Positions 14,102 to 18,763 of a stretch of 29,518 bases of DNA are shown here, in pieces (positions within the stretch are counted from its first letter, which is position 1; every line of letters starts with the position of its first letter). The DNA comes from Anaerolineales bacterium (GTDB lineage Bacteria > Chloroflexota > Anaerolineae > Anaerolineales > UBA6663): contig JAYUUW010000081.1 of assembly GCA_043754665.1 (NCBI GenBank), positions 1-29,518 of the forward strand, read 5' to 3'. The translations under genes and the position numbers were made by a program. Under the pieces are notes generated by a model. The model was not told the DNA's origin. It saw nothing but the letters and a program-made list of their open reading frames with translations, and did not search any database.

Positions 14102-16246
14102 CTAGCCCATCTTGCCGTGGCCGTTCGTCGGCTGCGACTCAAAGTCGGTGCCAATTACCATGCGGCCGATCTTCTGGTATTCGCGCTTGGTGGCTTGCAG
14201 CATGTGCGCCATCGTCACGCGCCGCCCATCGGCCGCCGCCAAGAACGCCGACGCCACCGCGATGTTGCGAATGTGCCCGCCGGTGATCTTGAACTTGCGC
14301 GCCAGGTAGTCCAGGTCCACATCCGGCCCCAACGGCAGTTCGGGCGGCAGCGCCACCCGCCAGATGCGGCGGCGGTCTTCTTCCTCCGGCATGGGGAAGT
14401 CGATGACAAACTGCATCCGGCGCACGAAGGCGTCATCCAGGTTCATCTTGAGGTTCGTCGCCAGGATGACCGCGCCGGAATACTCTTCCATCTTTTGCAG
14501 CAGGTAGGCGGTCTCGATGTTGGCGTAGCGGTCGTGGGCGTCTTTGACCTCCGAGCGCTTGCCGAACAGCGCGTCGGCCTCGTCAAAGAACAAAATCGCG
14601 TTGGCGCTCTCGGCCTCGGCAAAGATGTGGTTGAGGTTCTTCTCGGTCTCGCCGATGTATTTGCTCACCACGCCCGATAGGTCGATCTTATACAGGTCCA
14701 GCCCCAGCGCGTTCGCGATGATGTCGGCCGCCATGGTCTTGCCGGTGCCCGAGCTGCCCGCGAACAGGCTCATCAGTCCCTTGCCCAGCGCCAGCCGCCG
14801 CGCAAAGCCCCACGTTTGAAACACCAGGTGGCGGTGCTCCATTTGCAGCGCGATCTCGCGCAACTGCTGCACGGTATCGCTCGGCAGCACGATGTCGTCC
14901 CAGTAATAATGGGGCACGATCTTGCGCGCCAGGCTGTTGAGGATGGGGGTGGACTGGGTGCGCGCCGCCGAGTACAGGTCGTCGGCCGTCACCAGCGGCG
15001 CGTCGGGGCTGCGCCACATAGCCGCCGCCCGCGCCGCCGTCACTGCGTCGGCGATCTGCCCGGTGCTAAGGCTGAACTTCTCGGCCAGCGCCTCGATCAC
15101 CTCGGGCGCCAGCCCGGCGGCCAGGTCGCCCAACCGGTGGCCCCACAGCGCCCGCCGCGCGTCGAAGTCCGGCGCGGGCAAGTTAATCATCAAGCCCGGC
15201 CAGTTGAAGCCGCCGTCGGAGCACAAGATGGTCAGCGGGGCCAGGTGGTTGGTTTGCAGCCGCTGGCGCAGCCAGGCCACGTCTTCGGCTTTGAGCTTGT
15301 GTAGGTCTTGCAGCAGCAGCGCCGCCGGCTGCAAGGCCGCCTCGCGCTCGGCCAGCGTCAGCGCCGCCTCGATGCCCTGCGCGGCGGCCAGCCCCGGCAG
15401 GTCCACCGCCAGCAGCCGCAGCGCTGTGCTGCCGATCAGCCGCAGCGCCGCCTGCCGAAAGTCGGCCGCGTGCCGCCCGTTGAAGTACAACACGGGCGGC
15501 GTCAGCCGGGTGGGGGGCAGGCTTGCCAATTGGTCGATCTGCGCCACCAGGCGCGGCGTAAACGGCAGCGGCACCGCCGTCTGCCCGCCTTCATGCAGTT
15601 GCGCGAAGCCGCGCAGCGCCTCGTCCGGGCTGCTTAGGCCCAGTAAGAACCCGGCGATGCGCGGGTTGAGCCCCAGCGTTTGCGACGGCAGCGGCGTAAA
15701 CGGCTGCCCCGGCTCGTTGTACAGGTTGACCAGCAGCATTCGCCGCAGTGGTGCGCCCGCCGCGAACCCCCGGCGCACGGCGTCACGGTCGGCGCGCTCG
15801 GCCAGCAGGCGGATGGCGATTTCCACGCGCGGCCGGCGCTTGGTCACGTCGTCCTGCACGTAGGCATACAGGCGCTCCATGCGGCTGTCGGCTTCCAGCG
15901 CCAGACCCAGCAGCACACAGCCCACGTCAAACGCGTCGAGCTGCGCCAGCCGGATCAAGTCGCCCAGCGGCCCGCCGGCACTCTGTGTCAGCCGGGCCAG
16001 CGCGGCGCGCTCCTCGCTGAGCGCTGTCTCGTAACTTTCCACCGCCTCCGGGCCTTGCAGCCGTGGCCCCAGACCCAGCAGTTGATCTACCTCTTCATCA
16101 GAGATGTACAGCCCCCGGTATTCATCCTGCCCGGCCGGTAGCCCCATGGCGCGCAGCCGCGCAATCTCCAGCCGGATCAGGCGTTCGATCAGCCGCAGCC
16201 CCTCGGGCACGCCAGGTTGTTGCCCCTCGGTGGGGTTGGCCGTCAC
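14102..16246 (-). CDS. AAA+ ATPase, Afp15/Pvc15-type (CIS-associated)
   Basis: Walker A GSSGTGKT, Walker B ILFFDEAD, KYIGETEKNL, DAHDRYAN, SRH LATNL..NLDDAFVRR; N-terminal helical region and a degenerate first AAA module. Confidence 0.93.
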   Translation of the reverse strand: MTANPTEGQQPGVPEGLRLIERLIRLEIARLRAMGLPAGQDEYRGLYISDEEVDQLLGLGPRLQGPEAVESYETALSEERAALARLTQSAGGPLGDLIRLAQLDAFDVGCVLLGLALEADSRMERLYAYVQDDVTKRRPRVEIAIRLLAERADRDAVRRGFAAGAPLRRMLLVNLYNEPGQPFTPLPSQTLGLNPRIAGFLLGLSSPDEALRGFAQLHEGGQTAVPLPFTPRLVAQIDQLASLPPTRLTPPVLYFNGRHAADFRQAALRLIGSTALRLLAVDLPGLAAAQGIEAALTLAEREAALQPAALLLQDLHKLKAEDVAWLRQRLQTNHLAPLTILCSDGGFNWPGLMINLPAPDFDARRALWGHRLGDLAAGLAPEVIEALAEKFSLSTGQIADAVTAARAAAMWRSPDAPLVTADDLYSAARTQSTPILNSLARKIVPHYYWDDIVLPSDTVQQLREIALQMEHRHLVFQTWGFARRLALGKGLMSLFAGSSGTGKTMAADIIANALGLDLYKIDLSGVVSKYIGETEKNLNHIFAEAESANAILFFDEADALFGKRSEVKDAHDRYANIETAYLLQKMEEYSGAVILATNLKMNLDDAFVRRMQFVIDFPMPEEEDRRRIWRVALPPELPLGPDVDLDYLARKFKITGGHIRNIAVASAFLAAADGRRVTMAHMLQATKREYQKIGRMVIGTDFESQPTNGHGKMG

Positions 16247-16247
16247 G

Positions 16248-16613
16248 CTATTTCACCATGCTCACATTCCCTTGCTCGGTGGGGTCAATTTCCGTCGGCG
16301 CGTCGTCGGGCCGGTCGGGTGGGGGTGGGGCGCTCTCGCCCGCGTCGCCGCCGCTTGGTCGGGCGCGCTGGGCCGTCTGCAGGCCGCGGATCAGGCGCTG
16401 CACCGAGGCGTTGCCGCGGCGCTGCTGAATGTGCAAGAGCTGATTTTGCCGCAGCGCGTTCGCGGTGGGGTGGGTAGGCAGGCCGCTCAGGCTGCGGCCT
16501 GCCGGCGCAAGTGCGCCGCCCAGCGGTTCGAGGCTGGGGGCGGCGGAATCGGGCCGCGCCTGGGTGGCATCGGGCTCAAGGTCGTGGTTGGCGGTCTCGC
16601 GGGCGTCCATCAC
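16248..16613 (-). CDS. Small hypothetical protein consisting mainly of the DUF4157-cargo-type N-terminal leader motif
   Basis: 121 aa, low-complexity apart from LLHIQQRRGNASVQRLI, which resembles the leaders of the two large cargo genes; stop is 1 nt before the ATPase GTG; start could be ATG 16610. Confidence 0.65.
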   Translation of the reverse strand: MMDARETANHDLEPDATQARPDSAAPSLEPLGGALAPAGRSLSGLPTHPTANALRQNQLLHIQQRRGNASVQRLIRGLQTAQRARPSGGDAGESAPPPPDRPDDAPTEIDPTEQGNVSMVK

Positions 16614-16630
16614 TTCGCCTTCGCGCGTGC

Positions 16631-16652
16631 CTTCATTGTGGCTTCATTGTGG
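16631..16652. repeat. Perfect 11-bp tandem direct repeat (CTTCATTGTGG x2) just upstream of the CIS operon
   Basis: Seen directly at 16631-16641 and 16642-16652. Confidence 0.85.
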
Positions 16653-16708
16653 AAGGAATCTGGGCCACCCTGGATAGTACGCTAGGTCTAGCTTGCCAAT
16701 CATGCCGA

Positions 16709-17752
16709 CTAGCTCAAGATACTATCATGGTCAGCAAATCGACGCAAAAACGCGACGGCATTTTCGGCCAGCGTGTCGAGGCGGTAGCCGCCCTCCTGCA
16801 CCAGCACCGTCGGCAGGCCCAGCGCGGCAATCGCCTCGCCCACCGCGCCCAATCCGCCGGGGGTGAGCGTGAAGCCGCCCACCGGGTCGCCCACGGCCGT
16901 GTCGAACCCCACCGACACCACCAGGTACTCCGGCGCGTAGTCGGCGATCACCGCCAGCGCTTCCTCCAGCGTCGCCAGGTAGCCCGCGTCGTCGGTGCCC
17001 AGCGGCAGCGCCCAGTTGCGGTTGTAGCCCAGCCCCGCGCCCTCGCCGCGCTCGTCCGGCCCGCCCCAGTAGAAGGGGTAGTCCTCGTTTGGGTCCGCGT
17101 GCAGTGAGCAAAACAGCACGCCGGGGTCGTCGTAGAAGATCATCTGCGTGCCGTTGCCGTGGTGGTAGTCAATATCCAGCACGGCCACGCGCCCGCCGCT
17201 CTGCGCCCCCAGCCAGCGCGCCGCAATGGCCGCATTGTTCAGATAGCAAAACCCGCCATACAGCGCCGCCGCCGCGTGGTGGCCGGGCGGCCGGCACAGC
17301 GCATAGGCCGACTGCGCCCCGGCCCGCACTTGGGCCGCCGCCGTCACCGCGCATTGCGCCGCCAGGTAGGCCGCCTCCCACGTGCCTTCCAGCGTGGGGC
17401 TGCCCACGTCAAACGCGTAGTAGCCCACCAGCCCCAGAAAGCCGCTCGGCTTGTGCCGCGCCCCGCGGGCCGCAAACGTGGAGGCGAACACCGGGCTGCC
17501 CGCCTTGTAGTAGGCCGTGTGGTTGGCGTACAGCGTGCGCAGAAAGTCTACGTACTCGGCGTCGTGCACCGCCAGAATCGGGGCCAGGCCGAAGTCAGTG
17601 GGCGCTTCCACCGGCCCCAGCCCGGCCGCCCGCACCGCCGCCACAATGATCTCGGCCCGCACTGGCACCTCATCGGTCACGAACGGATGCCCCTCCAGGC
17701 GCACGCCAGCGGTGTCATGCAACTGATGCTTGTCCGTGTAAATAGTAATCAT
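16709..17752 (-). CDS. Histone deacetylase family protein, acetylpolyamine amidohydrolase-like
   Basis: RPPGHHA, GGFCYLNNAAIAA, LDIDYHHGNGTQ, VSVGFD, QEGGY motifs. Confidence 0.93.
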   Translation of the reverse strand: MITIYTDKHQLHDTAGVRLEGHPFVTDEVPVRAEIIVAAVRAAGLGPVEAPTDFGLAPILAVHDAEYVDFLRTLYANHTAYYKAGSPVFASTFAARGARHKPSGFLGLVGYYAFDVGSPTLEGTWEAAYLAAQCAVTAAAQVRAGAQSAYALCRPPGHHAAAALYGGFCYLNNAAIAARWLGAQSGGRVAVLDIDYHHGNGTQMIFYDDPGVLFCSLHADPNEDYPFYWGGPDERGEGAGLGYNRNWALPLGTDDAGYLATLEEALAVIADYAPEYLVVSVGFDTAVGDPVGGFTLTPGGLGAVGEAIAALGLPTVLVQEGGYRLDTLAENAVAFLRRFADHDSILS

Positions 17753-17759
17753 GCGCGCG

Positions 17760-17765
17760 ATTATA
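17760..17765 (-). promoter_or_regulatory. -10 hexamer TATAAT, 7 nt upstream of the deacetylase ATG (leaderless-type promoter)
   Basis: Minus strand TATAAT-CGCGCGC-ATG; no Shine-Dalgarno in between. Confidence 0.55.
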
Positions 17766-17789
17766 GATTAACTCGCCCCCAGCTCGCTT

Positions 17790-17827
17790 AAACAAAAACC
17801 GAGCGCTTCCACGCGGGAAGCGCCCGG
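17790..17827 (-). terminator. Rho-independent terminator after trmI
   Basis: Minus strand CCGGGCGCTTCC-CGCGT-GGAAGCGCTCGG followed by TTTTTGTTT. Confidence 0.75.
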
Positions 17828-17869
17828 TCAAGGGCGTGGCTGTAATGCCAGCATATCGCGGTTTGGAGC

Positions 17870-18763
17870 TTACAGCGTCCCGCCGTCGTCGCCGCCATCC
17901 ATCAAGTCCGGCGCGTCCAACGGCCCATCGTCGGGGATCAGTTCAGGCGGCGCGCTCTCGCCGGCGGCCTCGGCGGCGGGCACCGGCACTTGGGCGCGCG
18001 TCACTGGCCGCCCAAAGATCAGGTAGCCGGTGTGGGCCACCATGCGGTCCACTGGCCGCAGCCGCTCGGGCACCGTCTTGTAATAGCGCAGCAGCACTTC
18101 GCACACCTCGACGAACTCATAATCGTCACGCTCCAGCGCCACCAGCAGGGTCGACACCTGGTTGGCGGTCGGCAGGATGCTGCCAAAGAACCCGCCGCCC
18201 TTCAGCGCCTTGCGCACCACGCCGGTGTAGTCCCACGGGTTGGGCACATCGAGGAAGAAGGCGTCAACGTCGGTCTCATCTATCCCCTCGCCAATGTCGC
18301 GCCGCTTGAACGTCACCCGCTCGGCCAGGCCCACCCGCTCCATGTTGCGCGCCGCCAGCTTCTGCATGTCTTCGCGGACGTCATAGCTAATCACCCGCCC
18401 GGTCGGCCCTACCGTCTGCGCCAGCACCGTCGTCATGCCGCCGCTGCCCGTCCCGGCCTCCATCACCGTCTGCCCCGGCTTGATCGAGAGCTTCATCAAG
18501 ATAAAGCCACTGTCCTTGGGGTAGATGATCTGCGAGCTGCGTTTGATATCGCGGATCAGGTCGTCGGTGGACGGCTCCACCAGAAAAAAGGCGTGGCCCA
18601 GGTGGCTGAAGACCTCGTTGCCCAGCGGCTGCCCGATCAGGGCGTCGTGCAGGATGATGCCGCGATGCGTCTCCAGCCGGTGGCCGGGCGTCAGCCGGAT
18701 GATGAAATACTTGTTGTCGCGTCCGACCAACTGCACGACTGCGCCGGCTTGAGTAAGGGCCAT
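17870..18763 (-). CDS. trmI: tRNA (adenine(58)-N1)-methyltransferase
   Basis: SQIIYPKD, EAGTGSGGMT (SAM-binding), SYDVRED, FFLDVPNPW, LRPVDRMVAHTGYL. Confidence 0.92.
   Translation of the reverse strand: MALTQAGAVVQLVGRDNKYFIIRLTPGHRLETHRGIILHDALIGQPLGNEVFSHLGHAFFLVEPSTDDLIRDIKRSSQIIYPKDSGFILMKLSIKPGQTVMEAGTGSGGMTTVLAQTVGPTGRVISYDVREDMQKLAARNMERVGLAERVTFKRRDIGEGIDETDVDAFFLDVPNPWDYTGVVRKALKGGGFFGSILPTANQVSTLLVALERDDYEFVEVCEVLLRYYKTVPERLRPVDRMVAHTGYLIFGRPVTRAQVPVPAAEAAGESAPPELIPDDGPLDAPDLMDGGDDGGTL

Follow-up and report, generated by a model that had tools for sequence, protein, structure and literature searches.

The 120-aa leader-only open reading frame (ORF) at the head of this operon for a phage-tail-like injection system (CIS) very probably arose when a leader-bearing gene for a toxin-like cargo protein of about 980 residues lost about 860 codons by an in-frame internal deletion, and it would thus be a gene relic. 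This reading comes from sequence comparison and is based on the homology of both ends of the ORF to a full-length gene, on synteny, on a conserved junction with the ATPase gene, and on the nesting of this genome next to the metagenome contig L100. On present evidence, the leader-only gene is neither a dedicated adaptor nor a new kind of component. The window, by which we mean the whole stretch of 29,518 nucleotides analyzed, is contig C81 of the metagenome-assembled genome (MAG) G000, which has 993 contigs and 67% GC and is 79% complete.

The genes of the operon all lie on the minus strand. In transcription order, they encode a histone deacetylase family protein (16709 to 17752; Pfam PF00850 at 6e-71), the 120-aa ORF (16248 to 16610), a 714-aa Pvc15-like AAA+ ATPase with WHD and AAA domains (14102 to 16246; PF22977 at 4.7e-28 and PF00004 at 1.4e-27), a 1048-aa cargo protein (10940 to 14086), a 2283-aa cargo protein (4070 to 10921), the Pvc16_N cap (3154 to 3972), and the sheath (1426 to 2985). 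The two large cargo proteins each match the DUF4157/eCIS_core family PF13699 and carry HExxH, the domain lying at aa 65 to 142 in the 1048-aa protein (1.3e-26) and at aa 863 to 940 in the 2283-aa protein (8.1e-27). Streptomyces CIS loci have the gene order ATPase, cargo, cap, sheath, and the order in the window is like theirs. By synteny, the deacetylase gene is the left neighbor in all relatives, namely, in the contigs of G001, G003, L094, L100, L101, and P0006. The window ATPase is 85 to 88% identical to its closest set of relatives, the nearest of which has the NCBI name "Anaerolineales bacterium." Over its first approximately 1,200 aa, the 2283-aa cargo shares 74% identity with a G001 protein of 1206 aa (L099:6256-9873), beyond which the window protein extends for about 1,080 more residues at its C terminus, so that congeners differ in their cargo content.

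The small ORF spans 120 aa from an ATG at 16610, and the GTG at 16613 chosen in the initial annotation is one codon upstream. Its GC contents at the three codon positions (0.77/0.56/0.83) are coding-like and resemble those of the cargo leaders. The protein matched no Pfam or NCBIfam family and has neither PF13699 nor HExxH. A single-sequence AlphaFold2 model predicted one helix at residues 50 to 82 (16365 to 16463; pLDDT 82 to 91), which contains the leader box LLHIQQRRGNASVQRLI, and no regular structure in residues 1 to 49 and 83 to 120 (pLDDT 56 to 68). The AlphaFold2 model of the 1048-aa protein had a helix at residues 36 to 60 followed by the DUF4157 domain at residues 62 to 141 (pLDDT 93 to 98), and a Foldseek comparison of this leader-plus-DUF4157 model with the PDB gave no match at an E value of ≤0.001. 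Searches for a relative of similar length to the small ORF returned none in 60 related genomes and only the ORF itself in a word-indexed search of 5.8 billion proteins. An exhaustive phmmer search of 1.84 billion representatives gave one short homologue, P0125, a 115-aa protein that is 60% identical over residues 1 to 95 and is a protein-level (Plass) assembly fragment of the long form. By blastn and tblastn, the assembled genome contains no donor or second copy.

The nearest relatives of the locus are two metagenome contigs, L101 and L100, the latter found by scanning metagenome contigs with the pair as query. In L100, the deacetylase gene is followed after an 85-nt gap by a 982-aa ORF that has no Pfam family and no PF13699 (P0131), and this cargo protein is 60% identical to the small ORF over residues 1 to 81 (tblastn). 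In blastn, the window matched L100 positions 1377 to 1761 at 70% identity over 387 nt, including the 3' end of the deacetylase gene and the intergenic region. L101 is a 28-kb contig with a noisy assembly and many frameshifts, in which the deacetylase gene is followed by the leader-bearing cargo P0133, the sequence TAG-C-GTG, a WHD-plus-AAA ATPase gene, further genes, and Pvc16_N. The P0133 protein is 77% identical to the L100 protein over 87% of its length. The L100 payload has no close copy elsewhere in the assembled G000 genome, where we found only a 35% paralogous stretch in the 2283-aa cargo.

Both ends of the small ORF are homologous to the full-length gene at the same locus, and the middle is missing. 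The retained 5' part (16338 to 16610) holds the start codon, the disordered N terminus, the leader, and the start of a Gly-rich linker, as delimited by blastn and by a codon-level comparison that extends to about aa 91; a Gly-rich linker also follows the leader in L100, L101, and P0125. Homology to L100 resumes at about residue 101 (PDDAPTEID versus IDDEPTHVD) with the retained 3' tail (16248 to 16310; PDDAPTEID...MVK and the stop), whose sequence GACGACGCGCCGACGGAAATTGAC agrees with the L100 tail at 18 of 24 positions, and the last 31 nt of the ORF are 84% identical to L100 positions 4437 to 4466. The breakpoint can be placed within the zone between the last 5' and the first 3' homology (16311 to 16337), where about 860 codons are missing compared with L100. 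Because the two ends match the L100 gene and the middle is absent, an internal deletion is the reading that these alignments point to, and since the ORF ends on the same stop codon as the L100 gene, the deletion of about 860 codons would have been in frame.

The 3' end of the ORF also forms the junction with the ATPase gene (16244 to 16257), which consists of a Shine-Dalgarno-like GGTGA, AAA, the stop codon TAG, a single C, and the GTG start of the ATPase. This junction, GGTGAAATAGCGTG, is identical in L100 and L101 even though the amino acids encoded just upstream differ, and the last codons of the L100 gene together with it match window positions 16265 to 16235. The adjacent stop and start and the shared GGTGA are thus, as features of the sequence, those of a putative translational coupling. 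Beyond the cargo gene, L100 continues for 34 nt of the ATPase gene to the contig end. The ATPase N terminus reads VTPNPTPGRTAGVPDGLRLIERL in L101 and VTANPTEGQQPGVPEGLRLIERL in the window.

On the other side of the ORF, the intergenic region (16611 to 16708) has blocks that are conserved in G001, L094, and L100, as seen in three-way alignments and in blastn to L100. This conserved region contains an 11-nt tandem duplication (CACAATGAAGC and CACAATGAAGG on the coding strand; window positions 16627 to 16648) that is present as a single copy in G001 and L094 and may affect a -10-like element. A consensus scan of positions 16100 to 16800 found neither a sigma-70 promoter nor a terminator. Histidine-kinase, response-regulator, and GerE-type genes lie 5' of the deacetylase gene in the P0006 contigs and in L101:1-3722. 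In a P0006 contig, these regulatory genes sit between the TrmI and deacetylase genes, which are adjacent in G000 and G001.

From these comparisons we propose the following history. In the nearest relatives, a cargo gene stands first after the deacetylase gene and appears to be translationally coupled to the gene for the Pvc15-like ATPase. In the G000 lineage, an in-frame deletion of about 860 codons would have removed the whole payload, with its 5' break in the low-complexity linker that separates the leader from the payload. Three parts would have survived: the start with the disordered N terminus, the leader helix up to the Gly-rich linker, and the last 20 or so codons, which would supply the Shine-Dalgarno-like GGTGA and the stop next to the ATPase GTG. 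The two ends presumably persisted because they hold the translation start of the operon and the start signals of the ATPase gene, and any deletion that kept ATPase expression would have had to keep both. The relic peptide would still be made when the operon is expressed, and translation of the ATPase would depend on the relic ORF. The peptide keeps the tag common to the cargo of the system, and for that reason the machine could still load it as an empty passenger. Several points limit this reading: the ATPase gene behind the L100 cargo gene is seen over only 34 nt, L101 is a noisy assembly, one deletion in three would stay in frame by chance alone, and the only runs that cover the deletion junction (X1 and X2) may themselves have been the source of the assembly.

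Relatives without a cargo gene at this site show what else can stand between the deacetylase and ATPase genes. In P0006, L094, G001, and G003, the ATPase gene follows the deacetylase gene after 95 to 181 nt with no ORF between them, and none of these contigs has an orthologue of similar length at the position. The ATPases are 88% (P0006), 87% (P0007, in L094), 85% (P0008, in G001), and 66% (G003) identical to that of the window. The opening residues are MDTRET in the G001 ATPase and MSARET in the L094 ATPase, and the small ORF opens with MDARET, in the same codons and of the MDxRET type. Either the cargo gene was deleted there with its start fused to the ATPase gene, or the common ancestor of G000, L100, and L101 acquired the cargo by insertion after ATPase codon 6; the arrangement in G001 and L094 looks like a second solution to keeping ATPase expression. 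On the DNA of the deacetylase gene, G000 is 81.7% identical to L100 (83% at the protein level), 75.9% identical to L101, and 74.9% identical to G001, and L100 and L101 are 72.7% identical to each other. Since G000 is sister to L100 and the long gene is present in both L100 and L101, the long form would be ancestral, and the simplest history suggested by these sequences is a long ancestral gene with an internal deletion in the G000 lineage. The loci taken together would form a deletion series at one site, from the full cargo gene in L100 and L101, through leader and tail in G000, to the first six codons retained as the ATPase N terminus in G001 and L094, and would show how a cargo gene can be lost while the ATPase expression signals are kept.

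The initial annotation had described a leader of the form LQxxxGNxxVxxL common to three proteins of the operon, and we found the box in all three, at aa 58 to 74 of the small ORF (16389 to 16439), at aa 41 to 57 of the 1048-aa protein (13916 to 13966), and at aa 73 to 89 of the 2283-aa protein (10655 to 10705). An Asp/Glu/Pro/Ala-rich stretch precedes each of the three boxes, and the invariant Gly-Asn and the VQRL core are kept in the small ORF. Its account of the small ORF as continuing to AQR and then only through low-complexity residues was also accurate, with 38 such residues before the stop.

The initial annotation had suggested a genome-wide HMM search with the motif, and such a search proved the leader to be specific. 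We built a leader HMM from 27 leaders taken 5' of DUF4157 domains, with the small ORF excluded from training, and ran it on the 64,648 six-frame open frames of at least 40 aa in G000. Six frames matched, and the next frame had an E value of 0.41. Four of the six are PF13699 proteins with E values of about 1e-10 (strong by construction), of which two lie outside the window, on C222 and C763; the others are an ORF truncated by the end of contig C974 (1.8e-5) and the small ORF itself (1.5e-4 genome-wide; 3.3e-4 with leader profile A1). The box is present in all four DUF4157/eCIS_core proteins of G000. Among the relatives, it lies upstream of the domain in 26 of 30 DUF4157 loci, at distances of 15 to 304 residues, and two of the four loci that lack it are cut by the locus edge; in the 2283-aa protein, the distance is about 780 residues. 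Because the small ORF, P0131, and P0133 carry the leader without DUF4157, the leader is a separate module.

The leader box is thereby of practical use for marking the cargo of this class of CIS, with three more candidates in G000 on other contigs. These candidate orphan cargo genes off the CIS contig, all of them leader-bearing, are at C222:1727-3508(+), C763:479-3739(-), and C974:2533-3165(+). The first two have open frames of 594 and 1,087 aa that include DUF4157, and the third runs off the end of its contig, with no DUF4157 in the 70 aa after the box. Elsewhere in G000, contigs C181 (1-429 and 2174-2662) and C775 (3459-3944) hold a fragment of a second ATPase (58% identical) and two more Pvc16_N matches, one of which has an in-frame TGA. 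These matches suggest that the genome has one or more additional CIS loci.

In a sample of the phylum, leader profile A1 matched 38 of 401 genomes, and the cap family Pvc16_N was found in 78 of the 401. The cap family was present in 36 of the 38 leader-positive genomes versus 42 of the 363 leader-negative ones; related genomes are not independent, and these counts describe an association rather than a test statistic. The two leader-positive genomes without Pvc16_N have the weakest leader scores. The initial annotation had named an equal frequency of the motif outside CIS as grounds for giving up its proposal, and the motif was not equally common in genomes without the cap gene. Leader-bearing frames range from 96 to 2,289 aa and occur with and without PF13699.

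About one-tenth of the leader matches in the phylum sample sit in frames shorter than 200 aa. L067 has an isolated 96-aa leader ORF. At L070:542-1645(-) (G411:C324), a 120-aa leader-only ORF lies directly 5' of a 224-aa protein that consists only of leader and DUF4157; no called CIS gene is near this tandem of two minimal leader proteins on its short contig. In L095, a 78-aa leader ORF directly follows an ATPase gene and overlaps a 251-aa frame, resembling a frameshifted cargo gene. These nonorthologous short leader ORFs fit a background of cargo-gene decay better than they fit a leader-only class of genes. A different small ORF of about 95 to 130 aa lies 5' of the ATPase genes of other CIS loci in relatives (L014, L016, and L019), where it shares the pattern ...W.E....WRG.IE.VG....YF... 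and has no leader box; in L014 and L016, a large ORF precedes it.

The initial annotation had left two options for the payload-free copy next to the ATPase gene, a remnant that lost its toxin or an adaptor, competitor, or filler. The former gained ground with the full-length gene of about 980 aa at the same position, to which both ends are homologous, and the latter lost ground, as no relative has a short ORF there. We nevertheless weighed the possibility that selection maintains the leader-only protein for a role in its own right, whether by priming, regulating, or competing for the ATPase, by filling the lumen, or as an adaptor, and we consider it unlikely. The ORF is intact after an in-frame deletion, it retains the Gly-Asn and VQRL core and a confidently modeled helix, it immediately precedes the ATPase gene, its stop being coupled to the ATPase start, and other short leader frames (96 aa in L067 and 120 aa in L070) occur in the phylum. 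Against these points, the short form is seen in this organism only, that is, in the MAG, in the runs that are its probable source, and in one near-identical partial contig from another study (X3), whose 360 nt cover 16495 to 16854 with 4 differences and stop short of the junction. The closest relatives carry the long form or nothing, and no orthologue of similar length, as a conserved accessory gene such as an adaptor or chaperone would have, occupies the position, where L100 and L101 have the gene of about 980 aa. The sole short homologue among the 1.84 billion representatives is the Plass fragment of the long form, and the other short leader ORFs are nonorthologous, with at least one looking frameshifted.

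Substitution rates bear on the same question. Over the 78 to 86 retained codons, pairwise dN/dS was 0.48 for G000 and L100, 0.38 for G000 and L101, and 0.29 for L100 and L101; the value for the deacetylase gene was 0.17. The two values below 0.5 that involve G000 speak for a function of the short protein, but most of the divergence that they measure may predate the deletion. A three-taxon split gave the G000 branch a dN of 0.137 and a dS of 0.189, with a bootstrap range of dS that reaches zero and with L101 being noisy. Some constraint may act on the retained leader, dN/dS being below 1.

It is similarly improbable that the relic now serves as a natural minimal loading tag, made of leader helix and tail and still engaged by the ATPase, so that it acts as an empty passenger, a brake, or a primer of loading. 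If true, the relic would mark the smallest sequence that the machine recognizes, and the first cargo gene and the ATPase gene would be a coupled unit.

A reversed order of events has very little probability. On that reading, the short form would be an ancestral "empty cassette" made up of start, leader, and tail, and the long genes of L100 and L101 would have gained their payload modules later by insertion. The modular architecture, the low-complexity linkers at both borders, and the cargo content that differs between congeners would all suit this order. However, the deacetylase-gene DNA places G000 together with L100 and leaves L101 outside, and because the L100 and L101 proteins are alike over most of their length, the same payload would have had to be inserted twice if the short form were ancestral.

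Least probable of all is a collapsed or chimeric join made in assembly or binning, which the fragmentation and incompleteness of the MAG and the collapse-prone Gly-rich repeats of the deleted gene would favor, but which is countered by a separate Logan contig of run X2 that spans 15000 to 18000 with zero differences, by the presence of all sampled words in run X1, and by the absence of listed joints or loose ends at the junction; the X2 contig without a difference and the 4 differences in X3 thus make an assembly artifact unlikely.

We also considered and rejected an insertion of about 340 nt into the 5' end of the ATPase gene, as L100 and L101 show a full-length gene there. The start codons shared with the G001 and L094 ATPases had suggested it, with a direct repeat as its flanks that has 13 of 15 matching positions, 352 nt apart, at 16586 to 16600 and 16234 to 16248, where ETAN near the start of the small ORF is paralleled by VTAN at the start of the ATPase. 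Such a repeat has a chance of about 0.008 in G000, and by eye no comparable repeat is present in L100 or L101. It is probably a coincidence.

Returning to the internal-deletion relic, the question is what the retained leader does. The leader most likely serves to address the cargo in this class of CIS, much as the N-terminal loading sequences do in AlgoCIS and PVC, and we infer, in line with the initial annotation, that its helix may be a loading or ATPase recognition signal. The shared leader fits such a tag in being N-terminal, in forming a helix within a disordered stretch, in its variable distance from DUF4157, in its occurrence also on proteins that lack DUF4157, and in being nearly confined to CIS-bearing genomes. 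It has the features of an eCIS leader in that it is N-terminal in proteins of a CIS locus, lies in a disordered N-terminal region, and heads unrelated payloads. In AlgoCIS, loading requires the N-terminal domains of Cgo1 and Cgo2 as well as the AAA+ protein Alg15 but does not require DUF4157 (bioRxiv 10.64898/2026.05.27.728243). Homology among PVC signal peptides is rare, and their loading is Pvc15 dependent (PMC11495950). Loading sequences are described as not conserved between systems (bioRxiv 10.64898/2026.05.27.728243), and eCIS signal peptides are reported to show no specific conserved sequence (PMC11297309). Because the literature thus presents eCIS loading sequences as lacking a conserved sequence, the box deserves a proper description. 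A full-text literature search for forms of the leader box returned nothing relevant.

Among known systems, AlgoCIS of Algoriphagus machipongonensis is similar in several respects. Its cargo proteins Cgo1 and Cgo2 fill the tube, and in both a disordered N-terminal domain is combined with DUF4157 and a C-terminal domain that varies (PMC8894135). The cargo studied here likewise combines a disordered N terminus, an optional DUF4157, and a variable C-terminal domain, and in both systems the cargo genes lie inside the CIS locus together with a gene for a Pvc15-like AAA+ ATPase, which AlgoCIS requires. The two differ in that no loading sequence is conserved across systems according to the preprint, whereas here a discrete helix box is present in nearly all cargo of the clade, and in that a natural payload-free derivative is absent from the descriptions of AlgoCIS (PMC8894135; bioRxiv 10.64898/2026.05.27.728243). 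The Photorhabdus PVC resembles the present system in that payloads with nothing else in common are directed into the tube by N-terminal leaders about 50 residues long, assisted by the ATPase, and in that these leaders fall into sequence groups (PMC11495950; Jiang et al. 2022, as cited in PMC11297309). Unlike here, leader homology is reportedly rare in that system, and the present locus has the Streptomyces-like order of ATPase, cargo, cap, and sheath genes.

DUF4157 is a known eCIS marker (PMC8213781), and the 1048-aa and 2283-aa proteins, with PF13699, HExxH, and long linkers, are typical members of the DUF4157 or PVC-metallopeptidase eCIS toxins (Geller et al. 2021, PMC8213781; PMC11297309). 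The small ORF, P0131, and P0133 differ from these toxins in having the leader without DUF4157. The Streptomyces CIS (PMC11126660) has a similar giant DUF4157 protein, the tape-measure-like effector Tme, which contains hydrophobic hairpins and whose gene stands between those for the ATPase and for the cap and sheath, a resemblance by description; in contrast to the present locus, neither an ATPase-coupled cargo gene at the head of the operon nor a leader-only relic is described there.

The relic in the window offers a natural payload-free leader construct for asking what the ATPase recognizes. Internal-deletion gene remnants upstream of a coupled gene generally keep both ends and lose the body, with a stop that abuts the next start. 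The remnant at the head of this operon follows the same plan but differs from them in that its frame is intact and the part retained is a recognizable functional module, which may still be a substrate of the machine.
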